NCBI GenBank assembly: GCA_018692925.1
Contig: JABHLH010000002.1
Coordinates: 1-32,000 of the forward strand
Length of the DNA stretch: 32,000 nt
DNA from: an archaeon
GTDB taxonomy: Archaea > Nanobdellota > Nanobdellia > SCGC-AAA011-G17 > GW2011-AR17
Reading direction: 5' to 3'
Under the pieces are notes generated by a model. The model did no database searches and was not told where the DNA came from. It worked only from the letters and a program-made list of their open reading frames with translations. How positions within the stretch are numbered: the stretch's first letter is position 1; every line of letters begins with the position of its first letter. Below are positions 7,728 through 28,545 of this stretch, one piece after another. The position numbers and the translations under genes were made by a program.

Positions 7728-7791
7728 AAAAACTTTTAAACTATAAATTCTATTATTATATTAACTTTTTTTAAAAAGGAGGAAAAAAGAA

Positions 7792-8122
7792 ATGAATAAA
7801 AAGATATTATTTTTAATTTTAGGCGTAATGGTACTTTCTATTGGAATGGTAAGTGCAGAAACTTGTGCAACAAATGCTGACTGTGCTGATGGATTATATT
7901 GTGATAATCAATTTTATTATGATACTTAAATATTCTTGTGAAGAAGGACAGTGTTTACAAAAAGGATTGTTAGGTAAAAGAACTCCTCAAATTGCAAGTT
8001 CAGGAAAAGGTTTCGGTGCTGCAGAAAATGAAGGTTTCTTTTCAAAAATCTGGGAATGGTTATTCTGGGGTAGATCTGATTCTAACTTAGAAACTACTGA
8101 AGTTGTAGAAACTACAGAATAA
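7792..8122 (+). pseudogene. Third member of the Cys-rich secreted family, interrupted by a +1 frameshift near 7915..7929
   Basis: ATG at 7792 with GGAGG at 7778..7782. It encodes MNKKILFLILGVMVLSIGMVSAETCATNADCADGLYCDNQFYYDT and then TAA at 7927..7929. The next frame (track ORF 7853..8122) continues KYSCEEGQCLQ... It ends with AAENEGFFSKIWEWLFWGR, which aligns with the C-terminal tail of 282..2069. Confidence 0.6.
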
Positions 8123-8137
8123 ATTTTTTTTATTTTT
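8123..8137 (+). terminator. Oligo-T tract after the + strand gene
   Basis: An A followed by T-runs of 8 and 7, separated by a single A, starts directly after the TAA at 8120..8122. This is the archaeal-style oligo-T termination signal. Confidence 0.4.
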
Positions 8138-11395: not shown

Positions 11396-12792
11396 TAGCC
11401 TTCAATCCTCCAGATATCTACTCCTTTTTCTTCATAGATCTTATTAAAGTCTTTCGTATATTGAGCTACAAATAGGAGTCCTTCTGTCTCATAATCCCAT
11501 ATTTCATCCCTATACCAGTCATCTACCCAAATATAGCTAACATTATATTTTTCTAAAATTTCTTCAGAATCTTCTAAATTTCTTAGATAAAATACATTTT
11601 CAATATCTTGATATCTTTCTTCTGCATCACTTACAAACAAATAATTTTCATCAATAACATTTTTGTGTCCAGCATAATTAATCCAAACTCCTCTACTATA
11701 ATCTGATAAGATAACAACTTCATTATGTTGTGATAATAAATCTACAGCTTCCATAATCTCTGTATTAGGTAATGCTTCAATTATTTGTATTTCTTGTGAA
11801 GCTCCTGAAAAAACAACACCTATTAAAATTAACAATAAAGTAACTCTTCTAAAATATTGTGAGCTCCATCTTCTTTTAATTAAACTTAAAAATCCTAATG
11901 CTGCAAAAAATATCAAAAATATATTGAAAAAGATTAAAGCAGTTTGAAAAAAGTAAGACAGTACAAATAAGATTAAAACTGAAAAGAAGACAAATAGGTT
12001 TTCATATTTTTTACTCCATAAATAAATAAATCCCATTATTGCCAAAACAAATGTAAATATTGCTACGCCTAAATTACTTCCAAAGTCAAACAATAATTCT
12101 TGAAATAAACTAAAATTAACTTCTTTATTAATTTCAAATAAATTAGGCAATCCTGTATTATAAACTATAACTGAGAAATATATAAGACTAACAAAAGCTC
12201 CTACATAAAATAATCTTAAAAAATCTTTTTTCCTATCTTTCTTCCATGCAAAGGAATATAGTCCTAATATTAATAACAAGAAAATACTAAAGCTAATACT
12301 AAATAGGGGCATAACTGCAATTAATACATAATTTAGTTTTTTCCATTTATTCTTTACAAATAAATAAAAGATGCTTAAAGAGATAAAGAAAGGCATAAAA
12401 ATTGTATTTGCTGAGCTAAAAAGATAAATATAAATTGGTGAAAATATAAAAAAGATTGATGCAATATTAACTAAAGCTTTTTCTTCAACAAATTCCTTTA
12501 CAATATTTCTAAATACAAAAATACTCAATACTCCTAATATAATAGGCAATACTAAAGCTAAAAATTCTGGTGCTGGGCTTAATACTAAAGGTGTTCCCCA
12601 AGAATAAGCTGCAAACCTTCCACCAAAACTCAATGGATCAAATAAACTTAACAATCCTGCCAATCTAATATTCAAATAATGTTCTGTTCCAAAAGGTACT
12701 TCTCTCAAGAGTTGTATAACTAACAAAATTAGAAATCCTATTACATAGGTTCCATTTTCAACATAAGACTTTGTAAATACTTGCTTCTTCAT
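11395..12792 (-). CDS. STT3/AglB-like GT-C membrane protein with degenerate WWDYG region
   Basis: The track ORF starts at a TTG (12798); the first ATG is at 12792. The first-loop motif TEHYLNIR...DPLSFGG aligns with STT3 DPWFNYR. After the last TM, EAVDLLSQHNEVVILSDYSRGVWINYAGHKNVIDEN aligns with the (V)VxWWDYGYxIxxxxxRxxxxD region, but WWDYG is replaced by LSDYSRG. Confidence 0.5.
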   Translation of the reverse strand: MKKQVFTKSYVENGTYVIGFLILLVIQLLREVPFGTEHYLNIRLAGLLSLFDPLSFGGRFAAYSWGTPLVLSPAPEFLALVLPIILGVLSIFVFRNIVKEFVEEKALVNIASIFFIFSPIYIYLFSSANTIFMPFFISLSIFYLFVKNKWKKLNYVLIAVMPLFSISFSIFLLLILGLYSFAWKKDRKKDFLRLFYVGAFVSLIYFSVIVYNTGLPNLFEINKEVNFSLFQELLFDFGSNLGVAIFTFVLAIMGFIYLWSKKYENLFVFFSVLILFVLSYFFQTALIFFNIFLIFFAALGFLSLIKRRWSSQYFRRVTLLLILIGVVFSGASQEIQIIEALPNTEIMEAVDLLSQHNEVVILSDYSRGVWINYAGHKNVIDENYLFVSDAEERYQDIENVFYLRNLEDSEEILEKYNVSYIWVDDWYRDEIWDYETEGLLFVAQYTKDFNKIYEEKGVDIWRIEG

Positions 12793-14224
12793 TTTCAAAC
12801 ATTAATTCAAAACAGGTTTCATCATTGATATAAACCAGTTCTTCAACATCAAACATCTCCTTACTTTTTTCTGAAAAATATAAATAATCTACACTATATT
12901 TATTCAAAACTGTACCTGCATTAATTAAAGATTCTGTAGTATATATCTTTTCTACATCTAAAAGTCTATCTTCTGCATAGAAAAATTGTGTATCTATTAC
13001 ATTGGCTCTATTTGCTATATATGCAATCAAGTTTCCTTCATACACATTTCCTAAAATAACACTATCTTCTTCTGCATATATACTTGCCCAAGTTAAAACA
13101 TCAACTTCTCCTTGACTAACTCCTTCATTAATAACCACTTCTGCATTACTTATTGAAGGCACAATTAAACTAACTAGACTAATCAAAATTAATCCCCATA
13201 CAATATAACTTGTATACTTTGAAATTTTTGTTAAATTTAAATAATCTATAAACCAATTTATACTAATTGCTGAAGTTATACAAAAGACTACAGCTAAAAT
13301 AATCAATCCATATTCAAATGCTATTAATTTCAATAATAACAAAGTAAACGAAGATAAAATAATTGCACTAACTATATTTATTGCTGTATTTCTCCTCGGT
13401 GCTAAAATCATTCCAGTAACTCCTAATAATAACGGGATAAACCCAATTATTGATACTGTTTCAAAAACATTAAAATTTTGGAATAATGATCCATATAATT
13501 CAATTGGAAAATTTCCCCAAACAGTAGCCAAACCAATATCCAAATAAATATTTTTAAAGAAAATCAAATTTACTAAAACAAATAAAACCATATGCATACC
13601 AATAGCTTCTTTTATTTCTGTTTTTAGTGACATGGATTCTGCTATCATAATTATTGCAAATATTACTAATGTAAACAACATTAACAAGTTCAATGGTTCA
13701 ATCATAATATATACAAATGATAAAAACATAAACAATCCTTTTCTATTTTTTATATCTAAGAAAGTATAAATTAAAAGGAAAAACAAGGGTACTGACAAAC
13801 TTAAAATAGAAATTTGATTTAATGTATTTTTTATAAAAATTGGAATAAATGCTGCTAAGATCGCTGCAAACAAAGCTGTTTTTTTATTCTTTGTTATATC
13901 CTTTGCTAATAAATATACAATAAAAATTATACTACTTGCAAAAATTGCCGGAATTACTTTGTAAGCAAATCCTTGACTTAAAAAAAGATCCCAAACTGCT
14001 ATAAAATAATTAAAAACATTTGTATTCAAAATAACATTTCCTCCATAACTTAGAGGATCATAAACTAAAGGAACAAAATTACTTACAATATATTCAGAAT
14101 GTCTCAAACTAAAATATGCATCATCACTACTAAAAAATGGAATTTTATATTCATAAAAAAGTCTAAAACCTAGACTAAGTAAAAATACAAAAGGCAGTAA
14201 TAATTTTTCTAATTTGAATTTCAT
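12758..14224 (-). CDS. STT3/AglB-like GT-C membrane protein with degenerate WWDYG region (paralog of 11395..12792)
   Basis: The track ORF starts at a TTG (14242); the first ATG is at 14224, 7 nt after the scpB stop. The first-loop motif SSDDAYFSLRHSEYI...DPLSYGG is present. The post-TM region LTWASIYAEEDSVILGNVYEGNLIAYIANRANVIDTQ occupies the WWDYG position without the motif. Confidence 0.5.
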   Translation of the reverse strand: MKFKLEKLLLPFVFLLSLGFRLFYEYKIPFFSSDDAYFSLRHSEYIVSNFVPLVYDPLSYGGNVILNTNVFNYFIAVWDLFLSQGFAYKVIPAIFASSIIFIVYLLAKDITKNKKTALFAAILAAFIPIFIKNTLNQISILSLSVPLFFLLIYTFLDIKNRKGLFMFLSFVYIMIEPLNLLMLFTLVIFAIIMIAESMSLKTEIKEAIGMHMVLFVLVNLIFFKNIYLDIGLATVWGNFPIELYGSLFQNFNVFETVSIIGFIPLLLGVTGMILAPRRNTAINIVSAIILSSFTLLLLKLIAFEYGLIILAVVFCITSAISINWFIDYLNLTKISKYTSYIVWGLILISLVSLIVPSISNAEVVINEGVSQGEVDVLTWASIYAEEDSVILGNVYEGNLIAYIANRANVIDTQFFYAEDRLLDVEKIYTTESLINAGTVLNKYSVDYLYFSEKSKEMFDVEELVYINDETCFELMFENEEASIYKVLC

Positions 14225-15047: not shown

Positions 15048-15305
15048 ATGAAAAAACAAGAGATCTTACAAATCTTAATGATTTTATCAATTTTAATTCT
15101 TCTATCTATTGCAGTTTACCAATTTTCAAATGCTCCTATTGAGTGTTGGGATGGTACAGAAACAGATTCTGATACTGGAGAATTAATTCCTATTGGTGGC
15201 TGTAATGCTTCATATACTTTAGTTCTTTCTAGTCTAATCTTACCTTCTCTAATTATTTTACTAATCTTTGGAACTCTTTTATTTTTTTATTATAAAAAGA
15301 ATTAA
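15048..15305 (+). CDS. Small two-TM protein with a short Cys-bounded acidic loop
   Basis: 85 aa. An N-terminal hydrophobic segment, the loop ECWDGTETDSDTGELIPIGGC, and a C-terminal TM. Its stop overlaps the convergent aRF1 stop within TTAA at 15302..15305. Confidence 0.5.
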   Translation: MKKQEILQILMILSILILLSIAVYQFSNAPIECWDGTETDSDTGELIPIGGCNASYTLVLSSLILPSLIILLIFGTLLFFYYKKN

Positions 15306-16792
15306 TTCAAAGCAAACCTTAGAATAGCAGCAATTCTACCAATATCTTTTAACTGTGCTCCTTCAGAAGTTTCTGTACTAATTAATATTACTTCGGCACC
15401 TGTTTCTTCAGCTTTATCTTCATATCTTTCAACCATATCATCATCTAAAGCTTCTGATAATAATAATTTATCCACAGCACCCATTTCTAAAGCCTTATCC
15501 ACTTCTGTTTCACCATAAACAACTTTATTAGCTTCTTGAGACAACAATCTAAAAAATTCAGCCATAATTTTTCTCTCTGTAATAATAGCTTCATCTGATA
15601 AAATATCTGCACTTTTTTCAACTAACTCTTTCAGACCCCAACTTCCAGTATAACTTAAATCCTGAACAGAAATTACTTTTCTTTTCAATTGTTCATTCAA
15701 ATGTCCTTTATCTACAAAAGTATTTTTAGTCATTCCTGGTCCACCTACTAAAATTCCTTTCATATCTTTTAATCCTAAGAAAGCTTTATTTGCAGCATCT
15801 GCAATTCTACCAAAAAAATCTTTAGCTGCTTCTTCTCTTATTCTTGCAAATCTTTGTGCAGAATTATGAACAACTAATCCTTCGACGACAAAATTCTTTT
15901 TTTCAACTTCAATATCAATTAAAGGAATTTCTTTTTCTTCAATATTAATGCTATTAATAACTACTCCTGTACCTTTATCACTTAACAATTCCATTCCTTC
16001 TTCTAAATCTTTAGCAGCTTTTTCTTCTTTATTACTTAAGAAAAATACATGGTCTTCAGAACTTTCAATAACTCTCTCTCCTGCTTTTATTTTGTAAATT
16101 CTATTTTTTTTCTCTTCCCATTTCTTTAAAACTTTTGAACCAACAAAATCTTCAGTATCAAAATCATAACTTAAAACTTCATCACCTTCTTGAATTTCTT
16201 CAATTGGAATAAATTGTCCATCTGCTAAATGTACTGAACTATCTGGATGTAAACATTGTCCTCCAGCTTTTGTTTTTCCTGGTACTGCTGAGTGCATACT
16301 TTTTAATTCAATAATTGATGTACCTTTTAATAATCCAACATCTGCATCTCTTTTATCTAAAACTAAAAGTCCATAGCTCTCTCTTAATTCAACCATCTCT
16401 TTCAAAACATCAAGAACAAATTTTTGATCACACCTATATAATCTCATTTTCATAGGCTGTGGAGGTTCTACACTAAAAACTTGAATATCCACTTTGCCTT
16501 CTTTATCTGAAACATTTCCTGAAAAAATAGCTAATCCATTTTTTGGATTTTTCTTAAATGTTCTCAGGTGTCTAATCATTTTTTCTAAAGAATCAACAAC
16601 ATGTGTTTGTGTAGTTTTATCTTTAATATTAGAAGCTGTTCCTTGTTCTTGTTGTAAATGTTGAATAATTTTTATAAGATCATAACCTGCTGGCACATAA
16701 ACAGAGACTAATTCAGTATGTCTACCTCGAATTTTTTCAAGACTTCTTACAAATCTCTTTAACTTCTGTTTTTCTTTTTTATTGTCAGCCAT
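15302..16792 (-). CDS. prf1: Peptide chain release factor aRF1, interrupted by a mini-intein
   Basis: 496 aa. Motifs TASNIKD (NIKS-type), YRCDQKF (YxCxxxF), GGQ at aa 177-179 and SAQRFARIREE resuming at aa 311. The C-terminal domain is typical of aRF1/eRF1. Confidence 0.9.
   Translation of the reverse strand: MADNKKEKQKLKRFVRSLEKIRGRHTELVSVYVPAGYDLIKIIQHLQQEQGTASNIKDKTTQTHVVDSLEKMIRHLRTFKKNPKNGLAIFSGNVSDKEGKVDIQVFSVEPPQPMKMRLYRCDQKFVLDVLKEMVELRESYGLLVLDKRDADVGLLKGTSIIELKSMHSAVPGKTKAGGQCLHPDSSVHLADGQFIPIEEIQEGDEVLSYDFDTEDFVGSKVLKKWEEKKNRIYKIKAGERVIESSEDHVFFLSNKEEKAAKDLEEGMELLSDKGTGVVINSINIEEKEIPLIDIEVEKKNFVVEGLVVHNSAQRFARIREEAAKDFFGRIADAANKAFLGLKDMKGILVGGPGMTKNTFVDKGHLNEQLKRKVISVQDLSYTGSWGLKELVEKSADILSDEAIITERKIMAEFFRLLSQEANKVVYGETEVDKALEMGAVDKLLLSEALDDDMVERYEDKAEETGAEVILISTETSEGAQLKDIGRIAAILRFALN
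15863..16255 (-). mobile_element. Mini-intein (131 aa, no homing endonuclease domain) inserted between GGQ and S of aRF1
   Basis: The junctions read GGQ|CLHPDSSVHLADG ... VVEGLVVHN|SAQRF. Cys1 is TGT at 16255..16253. The terminal His-Asn is at 15868..15863 and the +1 Ser at 15862..15860. A block-B-like SSEDH is present. The size is too small for an endonuclease. Confidence 0.85.
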
Positions 16793-16835: not shown

Positions 16836-19232
16836 TTACAGTTTTACTTCGATTTTTTTACCAAAACTAATCTTTTCAGCTTTTGTAACTGATTTAAGAT
16901 CTTCAAGGAAAGGTTTTACTTCCTCTTCACTTAAATCTAAAACTATTTCTTTAACTGCCTCTTTTAGTGATAAACTATTTTCAGATTTTACTTTTCTTAC
17001 TAATCCAATAACTTCAATTAATTTATCTCCAATTTCTTCAGCTTTTTCATCTATTAACTTAGAATTATACTCTGGCCATGAACTAATATGTACAGATTTT
17101 ATTTTTTCTTTCTTTGCAAAATACAATTGATAAATTTCTTCAGTAATGTGTGGCATAATTGGCGCCATCATTTTAATAATTCCATTAAGACTTTGTTCTA
17201 AACATTCTTGTCCACTTTCTCTTCCTTCTTTACTTCTTTTTTCAGGATTATACAATCTATCTTTAGCTATTTCTAAATAATTATCACAGAAATTTTGCCA
17301 GAAAAAATTATCTGCTTTAGATTTTGCATTGAAAAAATTATAATTATCTAAACTTTCTGTAGCTTCTTTTATTGTTTTATGTAATTTTGTAATTAACCAT
17401 TTATCAAAAGCTTCACTAACTTTACTCTCTTTATAATCTTCAAGGTGCATTTGACAAAACTTTGAAGCATTCCATAATTTTGTAACTGTTTTCTTTCCTG
17501 TAACTAACTCTTTTTCTTGGAAAGGCAAATCATCTCCTAGTTTCGCACTTCCTGCCATAAATCTTAAAGCATCTGCAGAATATTTATCAATCATCCCTTG
17601 AGGTTCAATAATATTCCCTTTTGATTTTGCCATTTTTTTACCATAAGGATCTAAGATCCATCCATTGATGAAACAATCTTTCCAAGGTAACATATCAAAA
17701 TGTAATTTACTCTTTGCAACTGTATTAAATAACCAGAATGAAATAATATCATGACCTTGTGGTCTATAGTCCATTGGTCTTTCAATTAAATAATCATAAA
17801 CTTTTTTCCCTTTAAACAATTCTTTAACAATTGTTGGGGTCAATGAAGAAGTAGCCCATGTATTAATTATATCTTTCTCTCCAATAATTTTTTCACTTTG
17901 ACATTTAGGACATTTATCGACTGGTGCTTTATCTTCAGTAGGGTCTACAGGTAAATCTTTTTCTTTTGCTAGAATAACTTCATCACAATCTTCACAGTAC
18001 CAAACTGGGAACGGAATTCCAAAATGAATTTGTCTAGATATACACCAATCCCATTGTAAACCTTTAACCCAATTATCATATCTATTTTTCATATGTTTTG
18101 GGAACCAATTTAATTCTCCACCTAATTTCAAAAAATCTTCTTTTAAATCTAAATATTTAATGAACCATTGTTTAGAATGAATAAATTCAATTGCAGTTCC
18201 ACATCTCTCATGAACATTTACAGCATGAGTAATTGGTTCTTGTTTTAATAACAATCCTTCTTTTTTCATTTCTTCTAAAATTTCTTTTCTAGCTTCAACA
18301 ATTTTTAATCCTTCATACTTTCCTGCTATAGAAGTCATTTTTCCATTCTTTCCAATTGCTTCTTTGATAGGTAGATTGTGTGCTTTTTGCCATTCCATAT
18401 CGACTGTATCTCCGAATGTACAACACATTACTAAACCTGTTCCTTTTTCAGGGTCTGCTCTTTCATCTTCTAGAATTGGAACTTCGAAATCAAACAAAGG
18501 AACTTTTGCTTTTTTACCTTTTAATTCTTGATATCTTTTATCTTTTTTATTATAAAATACAGCAACACAAGCAGGTAAAAGTTCTGGTCTTGTTGTTGCA
18601 ACAACTAATTCTTTTTTTCCAGACTTAAACACAATATCATTAAATGAAGAACTCATCTCTTTATCTTCACATTCTACTTGTGAAATTGCAGTTTGGCATT
18701 TTGGACAATACATTGCTGCAGCTTCTTTTCTATATTGTCTTCCTGAATTATATAAATCAATGAAAGATTTTTGAGAAATCCTTTGAGAATGTTTATCAAT
18801 TGTTGAATAATTAACTTCAAAATCACAACTTATTCCTAAGTCTTTCCAATCTTGAATATATTTTGGTTTTAATTCATTATTTATTGTATCTAAACACAAT
18901 TTTCTAAACTCTTTCCTATCCATTTTATTAGCATTAACTTTTTTCAATTTTTGGACTAGAATTTGTGTTGGTAATCCATTATCATCAGTACCTAAAGGTT
19001 GCAAAACATTGAATCCTTTCATTCTTTTATATCTTGCAATAAAATCTTGTTGGCTATTTCCAAAAGCATGTCCCATGTGCATTCTACCTGAAACTGTAGG
19101 TGGTGGAGTATCAATAGAAAATATCTTTTTATCACTATTAGAATCAAATTTGTAAATACTTTCTTTTTCCCAATACTCTTGCCATTTCTTTTCTGAAACT
19201 TTAGGGTCATATTTCTTTGGAATTTCACTCAT
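16836..19232 (-). CDS. valS: Valyl-tRNA synthetase
   Basis: 798 aa. Motifs PPPTVSGRMHMGHAF (HIGH), TTRPELLPACVAV and KMAKSKGN (KMSKS), plus CP1 editing-domain-length insertions. The pattern is typical of ValRS rather than IleRS or LeuRS. Confidence 0.9.
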   Translation of the reverse strand: MSEIPKKYDPKVSEKKWQEYWEKESIYKFDSNSDKKIFSIDTPPPTVSGRMHMGHAFGNSQQDFIARYKRMKGFNVLQPLGTDDNGLPTQILVQKLKKVNANKMDRKEFRKLCLDTINNELKPKYIQDWKDLGISCDFEVNYSTIDKHSQRISQKSFIDLYNSGRQYRKEAAAMYCPKCQTAISQVECEDKEMSSSFNDIVFKSGKKELVVATTRPELLPACVAVFYNKKDKRYQELKGKKAKVPLFDFEVPILEDERADPEKGTGLVMCCTFGDTVDMEWQKAHNLPIKEAIGKNGKMTSIAGKYEGLKIVEARKEILEEMKKEGLLLKQEPITHAVNVHERCGTAIEFIHSKQWFIKYLDLKEDFLKLGGELNWFPKHMKNRYDNWVKGLQWDWCISRQIHFGIPFPVWYCEDCDEVILAKEKDLPVDPTEDKAPVDKCPKCQSEKIIGEKDIINTWATSSLTPTIVKELFKGKKVYDYLIERPMDYRPQGHDIISFWLFNTVAKSKLHFDMLPWKDCFINGWILDPYGKKMAKSKGNIIEPQGMIDKYSADALRFMAGSAKLGDDLPFQEKELVTGKKTVTKLWNASKFCQMHLEDYKESKVSEAFDKWLITKLHKTIKEATESLDNYNFFNAKSKADNFFWQNFCDNYLEIAKDRLYNPEKRSKEGRESGQECLEQSLNGIIKMMAPIMPHITEEIYQLYFAKKEKIKSVHISSWPEYNSKLIDEKAEEIGDKLIEVIGLVRKVKSENSLSLKEAVKEIVLDLSEEEVKPFLEDLKSVTKAEKISFGKKIEVKL

Positions 19233-19313
19233 ATAAAGCTTTTATTCGACGGAATTTAAATACTTTTCTAATAGAAACTTTTATAAATAAAACCTTTGGT
19301 TTCAGAACTTAAT
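19233..19313. promoter_or_regulatory. Divergent promoter region with two TATA boxes (valS and GGDEF gene), both implying leaderless mRNAs
   Basis: GTATTTAAAT (rc of 19254..19263) is centred about 26 nt from the valS ATG (19232). TTTATAAATA at 19280..19289 is centred about 29 nt before the ATG at 19314. Confidence 0.45.
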
Positions 19314-20111
19314 ATGACAGAAAGAACTGAATTAGAAGCGTATCTAAATGTATTCTTAGAAGAGCCTAGTATGGCTACTTTTGAAGCAATTTCAGAAGTG
19401 CTTGATCCTTCAGTTTTACCAGAATTATTAGATTTTACTTATTCATTTATCCTTGAACAAAGAGATCCTCAATATTTTGATTTGCTTATTGAATTAAATA
19501 ACAAAAAAGATGAGATGCGTAAAGCTAAATTTGAAGATTTAAGACAACTTTCAACTTTAGATCCATTAACTGGTTTACCTAATAGAAGAGGTTTATATCA
19601 AAGATTAGACTCCTTAATGTCTATTGCTTCAAGAAAAAGTTCTCCTCTATCAATCAGTATTTTAGATATTGACCACTTCAAAAGATTTAATGATACTCAT
19701 GGTCACCTAGTAGGTGATGAAGCTTTAACTTATTTTGGAAATTTTTTCAAAGAGAGACTTAGAGGTTCTGATTTAATTTCAAGGTTTGGGGGGGAGGAAT
19801 TTGTTGTATGTCTTTATGGCCCTTCATATGCTAGTGCAATTGATAAAATTAAAGATCTAGGTAGAAGTATTCAAACAGAATCTTTAAGATGGGAATATTC
19901 TGCTTCTGGTGTTAATCCTATTAGTTTTAGTGCAGGCTTATCTTGGTTATCTTCACCTTCTTCTCCAGGTTCTAATTTTACAGAAAAAATAACTGAACTT
20001 CTAAATTTTGCAGATAGAAATCTGTATAAAGCAAAAGAATCTGGAAGAAATGCTTTAGTCTCTTCAAAAGTGGGTTTCAGAAATAGTGAGAGTTTACACC
20101 ATTTTGCATAA
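19314..20111 (+). CDS. GGDEF-domain diguanylate cyclase with intact active site and I-site, plus an ~80-aa unknown N-terminal domain
   Basis: The track ORF starts at TTG 19296; ATG 19314 fits the TATA spacing. Motifs: DPLTGLPNRRG, ILDIDHFKRFNDTHGHLVGDEAL, RGSD (19761..19772) then 5 aa then GGEEF (19788..19802), and FADRNLYKAKESGRNA. Confidence 0.85.
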   Translation: MTERTELEAYLNVFLEEPSMATFEAISEVLDPSVLPELLDFTYSFILEQRDPQYFDLLIELNNKKDEMRKAKFEDLRQLSTLDPLTGLPNRRGLYQRLDSLMSIASRKSSPLSISILDIDHFKRFNDTHGHLVGDEALTYFGNFFKERLRGSDLISRFGGEEFVVCLYGPSYASAIDKIKDLGRSIQTESLRWEYSASGVNPISFSAGLSWLSSPSSPGSNFTEKITELLNFADRNLYKAKESGRNALVSSKVGFRNSESLHHFA

Positions 20112-20155
20112 ATCTAACCAAAATCTTTAATAACTAAGTTCTCATTAATCATTAT

Positions 20156-21265
20156 ATGTCAACTGTAACACCTTGGGAAGTTAAAGGGAATCTTAATTAT
20201 GGTAAACTGATAAAAAAATTCGGATTAAAACCTTTGAAGAAACTTCCAAAAATATTTGATGACAATCTTTTATTTAGAAGGTATCTTATTTTTGCTCACA
20301 GAGACTTTGACAGAATCCTAAAATCTATAAAAGAAAAAAAACCATTTGTAATGATGACTGGCCTTATGCCTTCAGGAAAATTTCACTTTGGTCATAAAAT
20401 GGTTGCAGATCAAATTATTTTTTATCAAAAACTAGGTGCAAAAATTTATCTTACTGTAGCAGATGTTGAAGCTTACAATTCTAGAAATCCTAATTTGGAA
20501 GAATTAAGAAAAACTGCAATAGAAGAATATCTAACAAATTATGTTGCTTTAGGTTTAGACTTAAAAAAGTGTGATTTTTATTTTCAATCTTCAAGATCAA
20601 AAGATGGAAAAAAATCAAATGCATATTATAGTTTAGCTAACATGTTATCAAGACATGCAACTTACAATGAGTTCAAAGCAATTTATGGAGAGATTTCTCC
20701 TGGAAAAATGGCTTCTTCACTTTTACAAGCTGCTGACATGCTTCATCCTCAATTAAAGGAATTTGAAGGTATTATTCCTGTAGTAATTCCTGTTGGTTCA
20801 GATCAGGATCCTCACATCAGATTAGCAAGAGATCTTTCACAAAGAATTAAACTTTTCAAGTTCATGCAATTAAGTTCAACTTATCATAAATTTTTACCTG
20901 GGTTAAAAGGTGATAAAATGTCTTCTTCAGATGCAACAAGTTTTATTGCATTAACAGATTCTCCTAAAGAGGCAACAAGAAAAATAATGAAGTATGCTTT
21001 TTCTGGTGGTCAAGCTACTTTAGAAGAACATAGAAAAAAAGGTGGTAACCCAGATGTTGATGTTGCTTTCCAAATGTTACTTTATGGTTTAGAAGAAGAT
21101 GATAAACAATTAAAAAATATCTTTAACGATTACAAATCTGGAAAATTACTTTCTGGTGAACTAAAAAAATATACTGCAGAAAAAATTTCTAAATTTTTAG
21201 AAGAGCATCAAAAGAAAAGAATCAAAGCAAAAAAAGAAGTTGAAAAATTCTTAAAAAATCTATAA
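20156..21265 (+). CDS. trpS: Tryptophanyl-tRNA synthetase (archaeal/eukaryotic type)
   Basis: 369 aa. Motifs TPWEVKGNLNYGKLIKKFG (compare the DPW...DYDKLI..FG N-terminus of this TrpRS type), PSGKFHFGH (HIGH), GSDQDPHIRLARD, KMSSS and AFSGGQATLEEHRKKGGNPDVDV. Confidence 0.85.
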   Translation: MSTVTPWEVKGNLNYGKLIKKFGLKPLKKLPKIFDDNLLFRRYLIFAHRDFDRILKSIKEKKPFVMMTGLMPSGKFHFGHKMVADQIIFYQKLGAKIYLTVADVEAYNSRNPNLEELRKTAIEEYLTNYVALGLDLKKCDFYFQSSRSKDGKKSNAYYSLANMLSRHATYNEFKAIYGEISPGKMASSLLQAADMLHPQLKEFEGIIPVVIPVGSDQDPHIRLARDLSQRIKLFKFMQLSSTYHKFLPGLKGDKMSSSDATSFIALTDSPKEATRKIMKYAFSGGQATLEEHRKKGGNPDVDVAFQMLLYGLEEDDKQLKNIFNDYKSGKLLSGELKKYTAEKISKFLEEHQKKRIKAKKEVEKFLKNL

Positions 21266-21297: not shown

Positions 21298-24200
21298 ATG
21301 AAAAAGGGGCTCATATTTATTATCTTAATTTTATTAGTCGTACCATGTGTTTTTGCACAAGAAACTGTTAACGAACAAATCGAAGTTCTCACTGATACTG
21401 CATTGGAGTATGAGAGAGGAAATCTTAACTATGCACAACTTATGATGTTGTCAAATTTAATTAAAGAAGAGATAAATTCTAATCTTGGTGAATTTAAATT
21501 TGAAGAACATGGTCCAAGTGGAATTACTGCTGAAGCTGCAGAAGATTTCTTTGGCAGACCTCAACATTATACTAAACATGCTTGGAGTATGAATGAAGAA
21601 AGAGATGTTTTTCTGGATGAAGCTCTACCTTCTTTTGAAAAAGTCCTTTTTGATGGACACAAAATAAAAATCACTTTTAATGCTTGGCCCCATGTATTAA
21701 CTGCTGATGAAGAAATCACTGTTTTTTATTGGACAGATTTTAGAGTAATTTTCAAAAATGATTTTGATTTAGATCCTTCTGAAATGGTATCAGCTGTAAA
21801 AAGTATAGGTACAGATTTTTCTAATGGTCAAGCTTCTGCATCTGATGTTGCAAGTACAATCCAAGAATATCAAAGTGTTTTAAATTCTTATCTTGAAGAG
21901 AATAGAGATAATTGTGAATCTTCAATTTCAAGTTTATTTTCAGAAGCAGTTTATGAAGAAGAACGAGACAGTTACACTTCAACTATTTATGAAGGTGATA
22001 ACTTAAATTTTATTATTGGAGTTCAAACTCCAAATTGTGATAATGGCTGTGAATGGCCTTGGATTAATTTATGGGGCAGAGAGGAATTTTTTGGTGGAAT
22101 GTATCCAGAAGACGAACAAAATTATTATGAACCTAATTATGAAGAATATGAATTTAAAGATTATACTATTGAGGAACTAGAAACAAGGTTAGGTGATTTA
22201 CTAAATGATATTTATAGAAATGCAAATCAAGTTGATGAAGGCAGAGGTTCTATGTCATCAGTTTATGCTTCTGTAGAAGAATTAAGATTTGTAGTTGAAC
22301 ATATGTTAGAAAAAAGTGTTTGGCAAGAAAATGGAAACATTGATTCATACAACGATATATTATCTAGACTTATTAATTCTCTTTCAGAATATGACAGTCC
22401 TGAAAAAGAAACTGTAACTGAAAAAAGATGGGAAAATAAATTAGTTGAAAATACTGTTTCTAACCAAGATGCTTGGTGTAGAGAAATATCTTATGAAAAA
22501 TGTGACATTACTCAAGATGCTTGTATTGAAGGAGGGTGTACAAATGCTTTAGGTGGTGCTGAAATTTGTGATGATGGTCTAGACAATGATGGAGACACAG
22601 TTACAGATTGTGATGATCCTGATTGTGCAAATGAATGTGGAAGAATTTGTGAACCTGTTTGTGAAGAATCTTGTTGGTCTTGTCATAGTGAAAATTGTCA
22701 ATCTACTTGTAACGAATGTTGGGATTGTGATTGGGAGACTGAAGACTGTAATGTAATTTGTGATAGTACTGGTTGTAATGAATGTATAAATAATTGTAAA
22801 TCTCAAGATTTTTGTTCAGCTTGTGTAGAGTGTGAAGGCTCTCAACAATCTAAATCTGATTGTTCTTTTGAGTGTGATCCTTGTGAAGAATGTAAAGTAA
22901 CTTATTCTGATGACCCCGAAGCTTGTATTGATGAATGTCAAACTTGTTCAGATTGTTTAACTCCTTACAATGCACAATGTTATTCTGTTTGTGAAAGTAT
23001 TTCTGAAACTGGTTCTCAAGAAGAAATTTGTAAAAGTCTTTGTGATCAAAATGTAAATTTTTATTGTGGTGGTGGAAAGCAAGATTATCCTTGTGAAGAT
23101 ACAACTTACATTTGTGATGGAACATCACAACCTTTCCCATGTACAATTTACACTTGTCAATTTAATGGTGAAGAAGTAAAACAAACTGTTCCTTGTGATG
23201 AATCTTCTATTTGTGGAGAGAATCAAATATTAAAAGATGAAATTTGTGTTTGTCAATCTGGTTATTATGATTGTGATGGTGATGCAACTTGTGAATCTCA
23301 AGAATCTTGTGGTGGAGCATCTGAAATTTGTGATGACGGTATTGACAATGATGATGACTATTTAGCTGACTGTAGTGATTTAGCTGATTGTAGATTGCAA
23401 TCTTGTGGTGAATCTTTAATTTGTTATGAGGGTGAATGTCAAGATGAAAGTATAACTTCTATTTGTGAAGAGAATCAAAAACTTCTTGAAGGTGAGTGTG
23501 TAGGTGTTTGTGAATTTAATGAAGATTGTTCAGAAGGATATTTTTGTGAATATGGTCTTTGTACTTTGCAAAGTGAATGTGAAATAGATTCGGAATGTTC
23601 TTATGGTGAAATTTGTGTAGACAATTATTGTGTAACAGATAATCCTAGTACTGGTGAAACTTGTACATTAGCATCTGATTGTACAAACCCAAGTGAAGTT
23701 TGTGCTAATGGTGTTTGTGTAGATTTAGAAGTAGAAATGTACTGTGGAGATAATATTTGTGATGAAAGTGAAATAGGTATTTGTTTTGAAGATTGTTTTT
23801 ACGATATAGTTTGTGGTGATAATGTTTGTGACTCTGGTGAAGAAGGTACTTGTCCTGAAGATTGTGGTGAAGAAGAAAAGATTCCAGAAACTGAACCTAT
23901 AGAAGAAGTTGTTGAAGAAGAAGTTATTGAAGAAGAAGTTATTGAAGAAGAAGTTATTGAAGAAGAAATTGTTGTAGAAGAACCTGTACAAGAAGAAGTA
24001 GTTGAAGAAGTTCAAGAAGAAACTGCAGAACCTGCTCAAGACGAAATCACTGGAATGTTTTCAGCAATCACTGGATATTTTTTCAAAGTAACTGGAAATT
24101 ATTATCAAGAAGGAGATTTTTGTGAATCTGATGATGCTTGTAATGCAAATCAAAATTGTGATACTTTCCAAGGTAATTGTTATTGTGAATATGGTTATAC

Positions 24201-25590
24201 TGATTGTAACAGTAATAATGGTCAAGGTTATGATGAAGATGGTTGTGAATCTTCTGACGCTACTTGTGGTGGTGAAAGAGAAATTTGTGGTGGAGGCTGT
24301 GGAGAAAACCAATACTGTGATGACATTAATGGGGGTTGTGAATGTGAAGAAGGTTATTACAACTGTGATGGTGTTTGGTGGACTTGTGAATCAACAGAAC
24401 AATGTCAAGCTTGTACTTCCAACGATGATTGTGCAGAACCAATTTGTGATCAAAACAATCCTTCTGTAGTATTAAACTATGGATGTTTCCAAGGTGGTTC
24501 TTGGACTGAAGAAAAAGGAGCAATATCTTTTTCTGGTGGGTGTACTAAACATGCAGATGGACAAGTTGATAGTTACTTAAGTTTTAACACTTGGGGTGAA
24601 CCTTTTGATGAAATCAATCAATACCAAAATGGATTTGGTCATAACTCTTGGTGTGAATGGGAATTAGAAAATGCATTAAAACAAAGAGAAGAACTTGAAG
24701 CTTCATTAAATACTGAATTATTTGATTGGTACTTTACAAATTATGTAAATCCTAATTCTGAAGAATGGCAAAAATATATTTCTAGTGTTTATGAAATTTA
24801 TTGGGTAGCTTTAGTTGACAACACAAGACAATTAGCAATGTCTTCTCAATGTTTAGATCAAGAATTCCCTGAAGTAAATCCAATCTCTGTTTCTTATGAA
24901 GATGAATCTTCTACTGGTGAAATTCATATCTACGAAGAGTGGGGCTATGTTGACCAATTTGATTTAGACATGTACACACCTTATATGGAAGTTTGGATTT
25001 TTCCTCCAGAAGAATTTTTGAAACAAGAATTTGCAAACGCTATGGCTGAAGGAACAATTCCTGGTCCTAAAAGAGTAAATCCTGATGAGTTCCAATATGA
25101 TCCAATAAAAATGGAAGATGCAAGATATTATTTGGAAGACTATGGACCTAAAGATGGTGTAATTAGAATGCTTGATGGTGATGAAGAAGTTTATGTAGTT
25201 GCTATAAGTGTTAGTGAAGAGAATTTATTAGAGGTTATGCCTGGAGAAGATTTTGCTGGTCAAGAAGATCTTTCAGTTACAATAGAATTTGATTTCATCT
25301 ATAACATGATTTCAACAACTGAAAAAGAATTAAGAGTAGAATCTCCTGAATGGATTGACAGAGGATTTGGTGATGTGTTCCAAGAAACTGTAACTAGGGG
25401 AAAGCAAGGAGCAATGTTTGTAGGAGCAATAGCAACTGGTGACATTAGAGTAAGTTCCTTGGCAGACATAGGTGCAGCAATGGATTTAATGGGTCTGGCT
25501 TTTGATTCCGAAGGTGATAGAGGAGATGAAGAGGAAAGAGACGATAAAGACAGAGAAGAAGATTTTGAATTCGAAAAAGAATTCAATTAA
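21298..25590 (+). CDS. Giant secreted cysteine-rich modular protein (1430 aa)
   Basis: Signal peptide MKKGLIFIILILLVVPCVFAQE. A ~370-aa N-terminal domain is followed by Cys-rich region 1 (aa ~393-863, 76 Cys by hand count). That region contains CDDGLDNDGDTVTDCDDPDC and CDDGIDNDDDYLADCSDLADC, C-x5-C-x5-C-x4-C knots, and YCGDNICDESE...CFEDC / VCGDNVCDSGEEGTCPEDCG. Next come an acidic EEV(I/V) repeat and Cys-rich region 2 (21 Cys). The protein ends with a ~380-aa C-terminal domain and an acidic tail. Confidence 0.85.
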   Translation: MKKGLIFIILILLVVPCVFAQETVNEQIEVLTDTALEYERGNLNYAQLMMLSNLIKEEINSNLGEFKFEEHGPSGITAEAAEDFFGRPQHYTKHAWSMNEERDVFLDEALPSFEKVLFDGHKIKITFNAWPHVLTADEEITVFYWTDFRVIFKNDFDLDPSEMVSAVKSIGTDFSNGQASASDVASTIQEYQSVLNSYLEENRDNCESSISSLFSEAVYEEERDSYTSTIYEGDNLNFIIGVQTPNCDNGCEWPWINLWGREEFFGGMYPEDEQNYYEPNYEEYEFKDYTIEELETRLGDLLNDIYRNANQVDEGRGSMSSVYASVEELRFVVEHMLEKSVWQENGNIDSYNDILSRLINSLSEYDSPEKETVTEKRWENKLVENTVSNQDAWCREISYEKCDITQDACIEGGCTNALGGAEICDDGLDNDGDTVTDCDDPDCANECGRICEPVCEESCWSCHSENCQSTCNECWDCDWETEDCNVICDSTGCNECINNCKSQDFCSACVECEGSQQSKSDCSFECDPCEECKVTYSDDPEACIDECQTCSDCLTPYNAQCYSVCESISETGSQEEICKSLCDQNVNFYCGGGKQDYPCEDTTYICDGTSQPFPCTIYTCQFNGEEVKQTVPCDESSICGENQILKDEICVCQSGYYDCDGDATCESQESCGGASEICDDGIDNDDDYLADCSDLADCRLQSCGESLICYEGECQDESITSICEENQKLLEGECVGVCEFNEDCSEGYFCEYGLCTLQSECEIDSECSYGEICVDNYCVTDNPSTGETCTLASDCTNPSEVCANGVCVDLEVEMYCGDNICDESEIGICFEDCFYDIVCGDNVCDSGEEGTCPEDCGEEEKIPETEPIEEVVEEEVIEEEVIEEEVIEEEIVVEEPVQEEVVEEVQEETAEPAQDEITGMFSAITGYFFKVTGNYYQEGDFCESDDACNANQNCDTFQGNCYCEYGYTDCNSNNGQGYDEDGCESSDATCGGEREICGGGCGENQYCDDINGGCECEEGYYNCDGVWWTCESTEQCQACTSNDDCAEPICDQNNPSVVLNYGCFQGGSWTEEKGAISFSGGCTKHADGQVDSYLSFNTWGEPFDEINQYQNGFGHNSWCEWELENALKQREELEASLNTELFDWYFTNYVNPNSEEWQKYISSVYEIYWVALVDNTRQLAMSSQCLDQEFPEVNPISVSYEDESSTGEIHIYEEWGYVDQFDLDMYTPYMEVWIFPPEEFLKQEFANAMAEGTIPGPKRVNPDEFQYDPIKMEDARYYLEDYGPKDGVIRMLDGDEEVYVVAISVSEENLLEVMPGEDFAGQEDLSVTIEFDFIYNMISTTEKELRVESPEWIDRGFGDVFQETVTRGKQGAMFVGAIATGDIRVSSLADIGAAMDLMGLAFDSEGDRGDEEERDDKDREEDFEFEKEFN
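23902..24021 (+). repeat. In-frame tandem repeat encoding (EEEVI)n-like acidic linker
   Basis: The perfect 15-nt unit gaagaagaagttatt occurs at 23914..23928, 23929..23943 and 23944..23958, flanked by degenerate copies. It translates to EEVVEEEVIEEEVIEEEVIEEEIVVEEPVQEEVVEEVQEE. Confidence 0.9.
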
Positions 25591-26670: not shown

Positions 26671-26701
26671 TCATATATAGAAAAATTATCTTTTTATAAA
26701 A

Positions 26702-26959
26702 TTATGCTCTGCTATATTTTATTCTTTGTATAAAAAGAGTTAACCACAAAGTTGCATTGATTGTTGCAACAACTGATGAAAAATATAGATTTAATGTAAA
26801 AAAAGCTATTGCTATTGCATAAAGTCCAATAAAGGTCAAACCTGAAGCTATTAAAGTTAGTAGCCCTTTTTTCTTTTTAAATCCATAATACACTTGGTGA
26901 GCTAAAGAATAAGTAAATAATAAATTTGCAATTGTAATTACAAGGTCTTGCCATAACAT
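26702..26959 (-). CDS. 3-TM small membrane protein, SemiSWEET/PQ-loop-like (tentative)
   Basis: 85 aa. TM1 is followed by AHQVYYGFKKKKGLLT, where SemiSWEETs have PQ-x(5-7)-basic-x-G-(I/L)-S, then two more TMs and a terminal IKY. Length and topology match SemiSWEET, but PQ is replaced by HQ. Confidence 0.4.
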   Translation of the reverse strand: MLWQDLVITIANLLFTYSLAHQVYYGFKKKKGLLTLIASGLTFIGLYAIAIAFFTLNLYFSSVVATINATLWLTLFIQRIKYSRA

Positions 26960-27000
26960 ATAGTCTTTTTTTTAATCTAACTTTATATACTTTTTGAAAA

Positions 27001-27249
27001 TTATTTTTTTATAAACTTAATCCAAAATCTTTTAAAATACTTTAAGGACAAAGTTGACAACACAAAACCTGAAGTAGGCACAATTGAGTTAACAAATGGT
27101 TTAGGTAAATCTGCCATAAAGAAAAATAGTACTATAACTAAGTATGTTAACAGAGCAATAATTACTTTCCTAGTAAAACTTGTCTCCCAAGCTTTATCTA
27201 TTTCAACTCTTTTATTTCTTCTTTCTATTTTTTTTATTCTTTTTTCCAT
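27001..27249 (-). CDS. Small membrane protein with basic N-terminus and two TM segments
   Basis: 82 aa, MEKRIKKIERRNKRVEIDKAW followed by two hydrophobic helices. It overlaps the poly-Lys tail of the upstream gene by 38 nt within an A-rich tract. Confidence 0.45.
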   Translation of the reverse strand: MEKRIKKIERRNKRVEIDKAWETSFTRKVIIALLTYLVIVLFFFMADLPKPFVNSIVPTSGFVLSTLSLKYFKRFWIKFIKK

Positions 27250-27808
27250 TTTTCTTAATGTGATTATACTTAACTAATAAAATTGATGTTCCTAAACCAA
27301 AAATTGATAGTACTAACATAATAACAAATAATGGCCTAAATCCATATTTCAAAGCTATATATCCACCTACAAGTGCTGCAATTCCTTGAAAAATATAATT
27401 TAATGATTCCCAAGCTCCCCACTCAGACACATCTTTTCCTTCATCAATATTTTTTGAATACAAACCATCAAAAAGTGGAGTTCCTATTGCATCACCTATA
27501 CCAAATACGATTTGAACTAAAAATAAATGAATTGGACTTTGAATAAACAAGTAACCTAAAAATCCTATACAAGATAATGCATAACTTCCAATTAATAATT
27601 CTTTTTTATACTTTATTTTATCTTCCCATTTACTAATAAAATAAATTATTACTCCTGCAGTAATTGCAAAAATACTATAAGCTGCTCCTGCTGTTAATAA
27701 ATCTCCTCCAATCTCTTCAACAAAGATCGCATAGATCGGACCAAAAAGCCCTCCAGCCAACATAAAGAATGATGATGCTACTAATAAAATTTTAATATTT
27801 CTATTCAT
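27212..27808 (-). CDS. Half-size (6-TM) major facilitator superfamily-like transporter
   Basis: 198 aa with six hydrophobic helices. MFS-like features include GIGDAIGTPLF in TM4 and a Gly-rich TM5 (QGIAALVGGYIALKYG). It ends in a KKNGKKNKKNRKKK tail. No second half is encoded on either side. Confidence 0.5.
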   Translation of the reverse strand: MNRNIKILLVASSFFMLAGGLFGPIYAIFVEEIGGDLLTAGAAYSIFAITAGVIIYFISKWEDKIKYKKELLIGSYALSCIGFLGYLFIQSPIHLFLVQIVFGIGDAIGTPLFDGLYSKNIDEGKDVSEWGAWESLNYIFQGIAALVGGYIALKYGFRPLFVIMLVLSIFGLGTSILLVKYNHIKKNGKKNKKNRKKK

Positions 27809-27839: not shown

Positions 27840-28520
27840 TTATCTCAAATTTTTTAATTTACCAAAATCATAAACTTTATCAGAAACAACAAAAACTTCA
27901 AACTTATCTAAATTTCCTTGTAGATAAGGCGACAACTTTTTTTCTCTCAAAACATCACTTCCTTCAGCCAACAAGTTATAAGAAGGCATTGCAATCAAAA
28001 CTTTTCTTTTATACTTTCCTTTAATAAAACATTTATATTTCTCTAATCTCACACCTTCTCTTAAACCAATTGCACAGTGTTCATGTCCAATAATAATAAC
28101 TTTAGATTCAACATCTTTAATATCATCTCCATGACAAATCATAACGTCTCCAACTTTATAATAATCTACTAACTCCATATCTTTAACTATTGGTTTCAAA
28201 ATTCTATCATGGTTACCTTGCACTAAAACTATTTTTCTTTCTCCAAAAAGTTCTAAAAAATCTCTAACATCTTTCCATTCGGTATTCATAATTCCACCAA
28301 ACTTATGTTTTATATCTCCATTAATTACAACAGTTTCAACATTATCTAAAATTTTCAAAATTCTTTCTTTCAAATCTTTAAAATTAAATCTTGGAATCAT
28401 TAAACCTTTAATATTCAATTCTTCCTCATATCCAATATGTATATCTCCAATAACAAGAACTTTCTCTTTAACCAAATACAATCCTAAATCCCGAATTTCA
28501 ATATTTTTGTGGATTAACAT
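27840..28520 (-). CDS. Binuclear metallophosphoesterase, PdeM/MPE-like (Lhr-associated nuclease family)
   Basis: The track ORF starts at TTG 28535; the first ATG is at 28520. Motifs VLVIGDIHIG, INGDIKH, VQGNHD and IIGHEH are present. The size (~226 aa) and the N-terminal layout (hairpin, then GD-H-G ... G..(I/P) ... L..L) resemble the ligase-associated DNA-damage-response endonuclease PdeM. Confidence 0.65.
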   Translation of the reverse strand: MLIHKNIEIRDLGLYLVKEKVLVIGDIHIGYEEELNIKGLMIPRFNFKDLKERILKILDNVETVVINGDIKHKFGGIMNTEWKDVRDFLELFGERKIVLVQGNHDRILKPIVKDMELVDYYKVGDVMICHGDDIKDVESKVIIIGHEHCAIGLREGVRLEKYKCFIKGKYKRKVLIAMPSYNLLAEGSDVLREKKLSPYLQGNLDKFEVFVVSDKVYDFGKLKNLR

Positions 28521-28545
28521 ATAATAAGAAAACAATTAATAGATT

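Follow-up and report, generated by a model that had tools for sequence, protein, structure and literature searches.

Does an archaeon possess a diguanylate cyclase of its own? The question is raised by one gene in a 32 000-nt stretch of DNA (positions 1 to 32 000 of contig JABHLH010000002.1, assembly GCA_018692925.1; the whole stretch is called the window below), in which a first-pass annotation made from the letters alone had noted a GGDEF-domain protein, a putative enzyme of cyclic diguanylate (c-di-GMP) synthesis, among archaeal genes. We found that this gene genuinely belongs to the archaeal genome: it is real, resident and narrowly distributed, being present in about four lineages. Judging by its residues, the encoded protein is apparently a functional, GTP-specific and product-inhibitable diguanylate cyclase. 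The gene has the look of a fast-evolving accessory gene in which the catalytic and feedback sites are held fixed.

Signalling by c-di-GMP counts as essentially bacterial. Archaeal GGDEF proteins have been reported earlier. Galperin et al. 2018 described one archaeal GGDEF protein, CAJ37382 from Methanocella arvoryzae, with a warning of contamination, as well as an inactive REC-GGDEF protein in Ca. Micrarchaeum (PMC5847659). Braun et al. 2021 listed >300 unvalidated GGDEF BLAST hits in archaeal metagenome-assembled genomes (MAGs), many of them from Asgard or DPANN archaea, and c-di-GMP was not detectable in Haloferax or Sulfolobus (PMC8646023). According to Roemling 2022, the presence of GGDEF in archaea 'need[s] to be confirmed in archaeal contigs' (PMC10086821). 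The view that GGDEF domains are very rare in Archaea thus holds in a less absolute form than first put, given these >300 unvalidated hits and the fact that the protein studied here is already deposited in GenBank (MBT3324437.1, 'GGDEF domain-containing protein [archaeon]'). In the literature, the phrase archaeal diguanylate cyclase matched no paper, and no validation study was found. The earlier reports, with which we compare by description, are hit lists whose authenticity has been questioned, whereas here residence in the genome was tested, along with the insertion site, the promoter, the orthologs and the intactness of the active site. As the enzyme family, its mechanism and such hits are known, the novelty lies in the validation and the evolutionary anatomy of one clade.

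The features of the locus, in order of position, are as follows.

16836..19232, minus strand: valS, encoding valyl-tRNA synthetase (ValRS); left flank, divergent, with its own TATA at 19254-19261.
19265-19277, no strand: 13-bp palindrome TTTCTA-A-TAGAAA, which reads as back-to-back elements resembling the transcription factor B recognition element (BRE).
19271..20116, plus strand: 846-bp insertion cassette (promoter, coding sequence and 5 nt), defined by empty-site comparison.
19279-19290, plus strand: GGDEF-gene TATA box TTTTATAAATAA, its centre ~29 nt ahead of the ATG; invariant in three species.
19314..20111, plus strand: coding sequence of the putative GGDEF diguanylate cyclase, 265 aa plus stop, with an ATG start at 19314.
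19314..19553, plus strand: N-terminal helical module, residues 1-80; four helices in the AlphaFold2 model.
19554..20063, plus strand: GGDEF catalytic domain, residues 81-250, seen by Pfam, PDB sequence matches and Foldseek.
19761..19772, plus strand: primary inhibitory site (I-site) R150-G-S-D153 (RxxD), with partner Arg R107; aligns with PleD R359/D362 and WspR R242/D245.
19788..19802, plus strand: active site (A-site) motif G159-G-E-E-F163; aligns with PleD G368-F372 and is invariant in three orthologs.
20117..20134, plus strand: ancestral trpS promoter core ACCAAAATCTTTAATAAC, kept in the carriers and in two genomes with an empty site (L092 and L139).
20156..21265, plus strand: trpS, encoding tryptophanyl-tRNA synthetase (TrpRS); right flank.

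The gene had been delimited from the list of open reading frames (ORFs), where it is a 271-aa ORF with a TTG start at 19296-20111 (plus strand). Its place stands; its start has to be moved. The TTG at 19296, only 6 nt past the TATA element, reads TTA in both orthologs, and the ATG at 19314 is conserved together with its surroundings, so that translation almost certainly starts at ATG 19314. The catalytic motifs quoted at first sight (PLTGLPNRR, DIDHFKRFNDTHGH, GDEAL and GGEEF) are all present in the translation. The profile search that had been proposed as a check gave PF00990 (GGDEF) as the sole Pfam match, with E = 1.4e-35 and 122.9 bits versus a gathering score of 23.8, over protein residues 81-246 and profile positions 2-160 of 161; scores of this size exclude a chance match. 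Sequence matches of the domain in PDB are to DgcR, WspR and PleD (E from 1e-23 to 1e-27). No signal peptide or transmembrane segment was found in the protein (the maximum Kyte-Doolittle 19-mer score is 1.06), and with no hydrophobic segment a soluble cytoplasmic protein is expected.

Functional positions were read from alignments with PleD (checked versus PDB 9g85/2wb4, residues 1-454) and WspR (3bre, residues 1-347), with residue roles assigned from published structural work on these two proteins. The ortholog alignment consisted of the window protein (P0001) and the proteins P0002 and P0003, and in these three every position given here is invariant.

D118 (PleD D327): metal binding.
K123 (PleD K332): transition-state stabilisation.
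N126 and D135 (PleD N335 and D344): guanine recognition.
R157 (PleD R366): conserved Arg adjoining the A-site.
G159-F163 (PleD G368-F372): A-site, with E161 binding metal.
K241 and R245 (PleD K442 and R446): phosphate binding.
R150 and D153 (PleD R359 and D362; WspR R242 and D245): primary I-site (RxxD).
R107 (WspR R198): I-site partner Arg.

Invariance at the functional sites is 16/16, compared with 44% of all positions (hypergeometric P = 1.1e-6; P = 1.3e-5 when the test is made within the catalytic domain alone). The RGSD sequence lies exactly 5 residues ahead of G159 of GGEEF, the spacing noted at the outset, and this RxxD together with the partner Arg places the protein in the I-site class. 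Hypr enzymes have Ser in place of the specificity Asp. Since the Asp at the D344 position (D135) is retained in all orthologs, as is N126, a Hypr-type cGAMP synthase is excluded, and specificity for GTP, assumed from the start, is borne out by the alignment.

The fold leads to the same family. The AlphaFold2 model of the full-length protein, made with a 55-sequence alignment, has a mean predicted local distance difference test score (pLDDT) of 93.4 and a predicted TM-score (pTM) of 0.84. All 50 Foldseek matches listed from PDB (E from 1e-12 to 1e-16) are GGDEF-domain structures, nearly all of them named diguanylate cyclases. Sequence match, fold and A-site, along with the metal, guanine and phosphate residues, are those of the active GGDEF subclass. 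The top Foldseek match, with E = 1.1e-16, is WspR from Pseudomonas aeruginosa (PA3702, PDB 3bre; GCN4-stalk fusion 3i5c), which is also matched in sequence (E = 8.7e-24) and shares with the window protein the GGEEF A-site, a helical stalk running straight into the GGDEF domain and a complete I-site (WspR R198, R242 and D245 correspond to R107, R150 and D153). Unlike WspR, the window protein has no REC domain; its input is a four-helix region of ~80 aa with no detectable homologs, and its host is an archaeon. PleD from Caulobacter (1w25/2v0n) is identical at D327, K332, N335, D344, R366, GGEEF, K442 and R446, and the RxxD is kept; it differs by its REC domains, which the window protein does not have, and by two further I-site arginines, R390 and R313, which are not conserved (D181 and I104 in the window protein). 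A short all-helical N-terminus followed by GGDEF is seen as well in DgcZ/YdeH (4h54), SiaD (7e6g) and DgcB (6ttr), which gave the best full-length superpositions (for DgcZ, TMq 0.68 over 274 columns); however, the N-terminal module of the window protein matches neither CZB nor any other PDB domain.

This module consists of helices at residues 4-16, 20-29, 32-49 and 52-79, the last being a stalk helix that continues into the GGDEF domain; modelled in isolation it has a pLDDT of 87.7. The remark that the ~80-aa helical N-terminus resembles no known sensor has survived three kinds of search. The module has no Pfam match; against PDB, Foldseek gave nothing better than E = 2 for the isolated module; and an exhaustive search of 1.84 billion representative proteins with a profile of the three N-termini returned its own clade and otherwise just two matches, one to a 60-aa fragment of P0003 and the other a spurious one to a repeat. 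A BLAST hint of resemblance to the helices preceding GGDEF in bacterial cyclases of ~310-345 aa was unsupported in profile-profile comparison (probability 1.6%, E = 0.032). Zinc sensing of the DgcZ kind is excluded because the module has neither His nor Cys, both residues being absent from the first 80 positions of the window protein. P0003 has a 3-residue insertion in the stalk helix. By its place in the architecture the module would serve dimerisation and/or sensing.

Many of the top bacterial matches (P0005, P0012, P0015, P0033, P0106, P0120 and others) are cyclases of ~340 aa that share among themselves an N-terminal region without Pfam annotation, of the form ...YFRLALEEIG..LP..P.NY...Y.Y.S... 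followed by ...L.LTRTMIE..R...; from its sequence this region looks like an undescribed domain family.

To which genome does the gene belong? Its neighbours encode aRF1 (eRF1 domains 1-3), an RPA-like OB-fold protein, ScpB, a class I TrpRS and an Lhr-type helicase, and the closest named relatives of ValRS (64-70% identical) and TrpRS (74-78%) bear the label 'Candidatus Woesearchaeota archaeon' or 'Nanoarchaeota archaeon'. The contig is archaeal, as had been said, and these relatives put the genome among the DPANN archaea (Woesearchaeota). A marine habitat is suggested by the names under which related contigs are recorded (TARA, 'marine metagenome'). In the assembly collection, 45 index blocks contain the exact 265-aa protein, and the identical gene with its flanks, in constant gene order, was found on at least 24 contigs of up to 429 kb coming from separately deposited ENA, NCBI, JGI and Logan assemblies, among them the NCBI MAGs GCA_018648525.1, GCA_018659445.1 and GCA_018661605.1. 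The composition of the gene is that of its surroundings: the GC content is 31% (window, 29%); GC at third codon positions (GC3) is 0.13 (window, 0.09-0.20); codon-usage distance is like that of other short genes; and the tetranucleotide check for chimerism gave a correlation with the window of 0.89, with a mean of 0.90 +/- 0.07 over all 798-bp segments.

Six contigs taken from different deposited assemblies were 100% identical over the gene, with 0-1 differences in 3.6 kb of flanks. This points to a near-clonal population or to closely related samples, and it limits the independence of the assemblies as biological replicates.

The position of the gene between valS and trpS was confirmed, and comparison with relatives defined the insertion to the base. 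Four genomes have an empty valS-trpS site: P128sp (L092, on an 841-kb contig), P129sp, L139 and L199, the last two coming from a survey of metagenomes. In silico removal of 19271-20116 from the window leaves an intergenic region of 77 bp, exactly the length found in L092, and the healed core, AATTTAAA..CTTTTCTA joined to CCAAAA.CTTTAATAAC, is nearly identical to that of L092 and contiguous in L139 too. As the healed site equals the 77-bp empty site, the insert is 846 bp long (promoter, ORF and 5 nt); it sits in a divergent promoter region. It is bounded by a CTA/TCTA microhomology of 3-4 nt (19267-19270 and 20113-20116), and no integrase and no long repeats flank it. All three sequenced carriers have an identical right junction, CTA followed by ACCAAAATCTTTAATAAC, and this speaks for one event in an ancestor. 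P0128 and P0129 keep the neighbourhood on both sides: Metallophos, radical SAM, a giant ORF and trpS on one, valS, aRF1 with an intein, ScpB and a family 2 glycosyltransferase (GT2) on the other. The description 'housekeeping core' therefore fits the neighbours, but not the gene, which is a lineage-specific 846-bp insertion of about four lineages.

Gene replacement at this locus is suggested by the synthetases themselves. ValRS occurs in two types, ~45% identical (type A in the window, P2sp, P128sp and L199; type B in P3sp and L139), and TrpRS as a type of 366-370 aa and a type of 356-357 aa, ~58% identical. The types are variously combined at the locus, and this implies that Woesearchaeal lineages have recombined there or replaced the genes in situ by xenologs. 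Between its replaced valS and its GGDEF gene, the P0003 species has an additional ORF of 470 aa without Pfam match (L007 8454-9866, minus strand).

The gene has an archaeal promoter. Only 81 bp separate valS from the GGDEF gene, with two divergent promoters inside. The TATA box noted ~29 nt before the ATG, TTTTATAAATAA, has not changed in three species although their proteins are only 57-64% identical, and in the 27-nt BRE/TATA block TTTTCTAATAGAAAC-TTTTATAAATAA, 26/27 positions are invariant in the three carriers, with synonymous sites of the gene differing at 41-47%. A TATA box at this distance from the ATG points to a leaderless or near-leaderless mRNA. TATA elements occur at -28 to -34 upstream of several other genes of the window, including valS; others have GGAGG-like motifs instead. 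The two arms of the 13-bp palindrome have different histories: the left arm, CTTTTCTA, is present in empty-site genomes and is thus ancestral, being part of the valS promoter; the right arm is part of the GGDEF promoter. The palindrome could be the binding site of a regulator. In the P0003 species the region upstream of the GGDEF gene is unrelated to that of the window up to the conserved BRE/TATA block.

Full-length relatives of the protein fell into three clusters only among 5.8 billion clustered proteins: P0001 (the window protein), P0002 (64% identical, on a TARA contig) and P0003 (57%, on contigs of up to 148 kb). The P0003 species (P3sp) retains the order GGDEF, trpS, giant ORF, and in the P0002 species (P2sp) valS lies directly upstream of the GGDEF gene. 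A fourth species, that of P0248 (P248sp), has ScpB, aRF1 with an intein and ValRS on one side of a 317-aa GGDEF protein and TrpRS on the other. The occupancy of the site may be set beside the identity of TrpRS to that of the window.

P3sp: TrpRS 93% identical; GGDEF gene at the site.
P248sp: TrpRS 80% identical; GGDEF gene at the site (317 aa).
L139: TrpRS 76% identical; empty site.
L199: TrpRS 59% identical; empty site.
P128sp: TrpRS 58% identical; empty site.

The carriers nest together by TrpRS identity, which fits one gain in a common ancestor. A scan with the GGDEF hidden Markov model covered, among the matches listed, 80 Woesearchaeal trpS loci, 49 of them with 1 kb or more of upstream sequence; among these matches no GGDEF gene was seen in the 49 informative neighbourhoods (0/49).

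Beyond the clade, the next matches are bacterial GGDEF proteins with 36-45% identity over the catalytic domain only, and a profile scan of genome contigs gave, among the matches listed, bacterial loci only. Of the two nearest bacterial matches inspected, one adjoins genes for a sigma-70 factor and a REC-HD-GYP protein, the other TRAP transporter genes. That the closest relatives outside the clade sit on bacterial contigs makes bacterial ancestry of the domain probable. P0013 and P0016, considered as divergent archaeal orthologs, were rejected: their composition is high-GC and bacterial, and they have no RxxD. A viral or mobile-element vector was rejected as well; a scan of viral and mobile-element contigs (IMG/VR) gave generic GGDEF matches only (28-47% identity, without coverage of the N-terminus), and the insert is flanked by neither an integrase nor long repeats.

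The protein evolves much faster than its surroundings. Between the window and P3sp, identity is 93.5% for TrpRS, 92% for the radical SAM protein, 86% for aRF1 and 80.5% for the product of the giant ORF, but only 57% for the GGDEF protein. By the Nei-Gojobori method the neighbours other than valS have synonymous divergence (dS) of 0.35-0.80, nonsynonymous divergence (dN) of 0.03-0.16 and dN/dS of 0.08-0.23, and the GGDEF protein evolves ~3-10 times faster than they do. ValRS is the outlier among the neighbours (dN 0.41 and dN/dS 0.55 in the window-P3sp pair), which we read as gene replacement. For the GGDEF gene a swap of the segment as the cause of the 57% identity was rejected, its dS of 0.59-0.68 lying inside the range of the neighbours. 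In P2sp, moreover, the adjoining ValRS fragment is 94% identical (191/204) and the GGDEF protein 64%, so the divergence belongs to the gene and not to a recombined segment. With dS near saturation at 29% GC, the dN/dS values are to be taken as upper estimates; the difference in dN between the gene and its neighbours is robust.

The first-pass annotation had proposed, as a speculation, one output for the enzyme, the GT2 synthase at 10157-11395, and this proposal found no support. The protein has GT2-family Pfam domains only and no PilZ; its match to BcsA is limited to the GT-A core (residues 31-268); and a counterpart (35.5% identical in L092) occupies the same position in genomes without the GGDEF gene. 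Its best sequence relative in PDB is 6yv7, a chain of 356 aa named 'Glycosyl transferase, family 2', which we take to be an archaeal membrane mannosyltransferase. With neither PilZ nor a PgaD-like partner, a BcsA-like GT2 activated by c-di-GMP was rejected in favour of a minimal GT2 of archaeal type. Membership in an anti-phage defence system was ruled out by the absence of any match of the GGDEF protein to the PADLOC defence models.

To the left of the locus, a glycosylation/polysaccharide cluster (window 1-12800; L094 13000-21788) is present in carriers and non-carriers alike; it encodes GT2, a GT87/EpsG-like membrane protein, GT4 enzymes, sulfotransferases and a Polysacc_synt flippase.

How such a gene might have come to work can be outlined from these comparisons. 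In one ancestral event the 846-bp cassette, a BRE/TATA promoter with its ORF, would have entered the 77-bp divergent valS-trpS region, leaving both housekeeping promoters intact, and would then have been inherited vertically. Dimerisation through the N-terminal helical module and the stalk would unite two GGDEF half-sites, by analogy with WspR, PleD, DgcB and DgcZ. Each half-site is predicted to hold Mg2+-GTP, with D118 and E161 on the metal, N126 and D135 on the guanine, K241 and R245 on the phosphates and K123 at the transition state; two GTP would be condensed into c-di-GMP, which at the I-site (R150xxD153 plus R107) would inhibit the enzyme by feedback. Input may come through the N-terminal module and/or through transcription from the conserved promoter. 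The integrity of the gene, its residence in the archaeal genome, the insertion and the conservation of the functional residues are shown; enzymatic activity and dimerisation are what we infer, and likewise any downstream receptor.

Our preferred explanation, which we consider likely, is that the locus holds an active, product-inhibited cyclase of bacterial ancestry, gained once in a Woesearchaeal ancestor, equipped with an archaeal promoter and under selection at its functional sites. Contamination, with bacterial DNA wrongly joined to an archaeal contig or bin, is the concern that PMC5847659 and PMC10086821 voiced for archaeal GGDEF hits, and the nearest homologs outside the clade are bacterial. 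Against it stand the same junctions on at least 24 contigs of separately deposited assemblies, archaeal genes within tens of bases on each side of a 798-bp gene in its insertion, the host-like GC3, codon usage and tetranucleotide profile, the BRE/TATA promoter conserved across species, diverged orthologs that are syntenic and a healed site that coincides with the precise empty sites of relatives. The conclusion of the first-pass annotation that the gene is resident rests now on all of these, and a chimera, which we rejected, has a probability close to negligible. It is also highly improbable that the enzyme makes a different product (3′,3′-cGAMP or c-di-AMP, in the Hypr manner) or hydrolyses NTP: GGDEF enzymes of altered specificity do exist (Hallberg et al. 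2016, as cited in PMC10249747), but D135 and N126 are kept in all orthologs, Hypr enzymes having Ser instead of the Asp, and GGEEF is intact, unlike in the degenerate GGDEF domains of ATPase type.

Other observations weigh against an active cyclase in an archaeal signalling role. c-di-GMP has been detected in no archaeon (PMC10249747, a 2023 review; PMC8646023). No EAL, HD-GYP, PilZ or MshEN domain was found in the ORFs of the window, as first noted, nor in annotations of the 10 kb beyond it at either end (~52 kb in total), and no Rfam family reached threshold in the window, hence no c-di-GMP riboswitch. The gene has dN of 0.25-0.38 and dN/dS of 0.42-0.60, values compatible with relaxed constraint; the heptad pattern of the long stalk helix (52-79 in the AlphaFold2 model), through which the protein is presumed to dimerise, is weak; the GGDEF protein of P248sp is known from Pfam annotation alone, its orthology being only presumed; and identity of the six compared contigs over the gene leaves no polymorphism for a test of selection. 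Could the gene then be a passenger, acquired but little or not used, and drifting or decaying? Besides the high dN and dN/dS, this would agree with partner genes not found nearby, with 0/49 informative Woesearchaeal trpS loci carrying GGDEF among the matches listed and with an N-terminal region unrecognisable beyond the clade. Yet none of the three sequenced carriers has a broken reading frame, and GGDEF is annotated in a fourth; all 16 catalytic and I-site residues are invariant (P ~1e-6); and synonymous sites have changed more than the promoter block. DPANN genomes are small, and useless DNA is expected to be lost from them. We hold the passenger to be decidedly unlikely. DPANN archaea are typically episymbionts, and an active cyclase might make its product for signalling or conflict between organisms, or the protein might be mainly a binder of c-di-GMP or a scaffold; fast, conflict-like evolution outside the active site, an N-terminal module without relatives, the stalk-helix indel of 3 residues in one ortholog and the canonical turnover and receptor genes not found nearby would suit such a role. 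It is unlikely in view of the missing signal peptide and transmembrane segment (Kyte-Doolittle 19-mer maximum 1.06), the lack of a PADLOC match or of an adjoining effector gene, the limitation of viral and mobile relatives to generic GGDEF matches, and a conserved I-site, which suits homeostatic control of an intracellular pool.

A few further features of the region were recorded. The aRF1 gene (15302-16792, minus strand) carries a mini-intein of ~131 aa (Cys180 ... His-Asn310, +1 Ser311) directly after GGQ, in the context KAGGQ/CLHPD...VVHN/SAQRFARIR; the same insertion is found at L092 10427-11917 and L007 4526-6016, and aRF1 proteins of 496-508 aa with Hint/intein Pfam matches occur in all related genomes examined, carriers and non-carriers. 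Directly 3′ of trpS lies a giant ORF of 1430 aa (21298-25590, plus strand) with a weak DUF7107 match only. It occupies the same position in carriers and in the P128/P129 non-carriers (1425-1602 aa), is absent there in the P248 species, and evolves fairly fast (80.5% identity between the window and P3sp, 48% to P128sp); its product may be a surface protein. A Fic/DOC-family gene (3274-3849, plus strand; Pfam E = 4e-12) has the lowest GC of the window, 23%, and weak PADLOC matches to the candidate defence models PDC-S04 and PDC-M59B. Between the radical-SAM and Metallophos genes, 26671-27808 and 27840-28535 vary among the near-identical contigs L001-L006, with variable calls for an MFS fragment (183/198 aa), the radical-SAM protein (341/353 aa) and Metallophos (211/226 aa); the MFS ORF, half an MFS fold, may be a pseudogene or a split gene.

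For one clade the locus confirms archaeal residence of a GGDEF gene to the base, by an empty site, a shared filled site and a conserved promoter, with active and feedback sites untouched despite rapid divergence elsewhere. A vague database observation has thereby become a defined target: a soluble 265-aa enzyme, in a small genome, with carrier and non-carrier relatives. Archaeal use of c-di-GMP is not yet shown by the locus. Only tentatively do we entertain that c-di-GMP is a working signal in this clade of marine Woesearchaeota, made by a single fast-evolving, product-inhibited cyclase with a lineage-specific sensor module and served by receptors and turnover enzymes outside the canonical PilZ, EAL and HD-GYP families; such a pathway might be tied to the attachment of the symbiont to its host, or to its interaction with it. 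If this were true, it would be the first archaeal c-di-GMP pathway.

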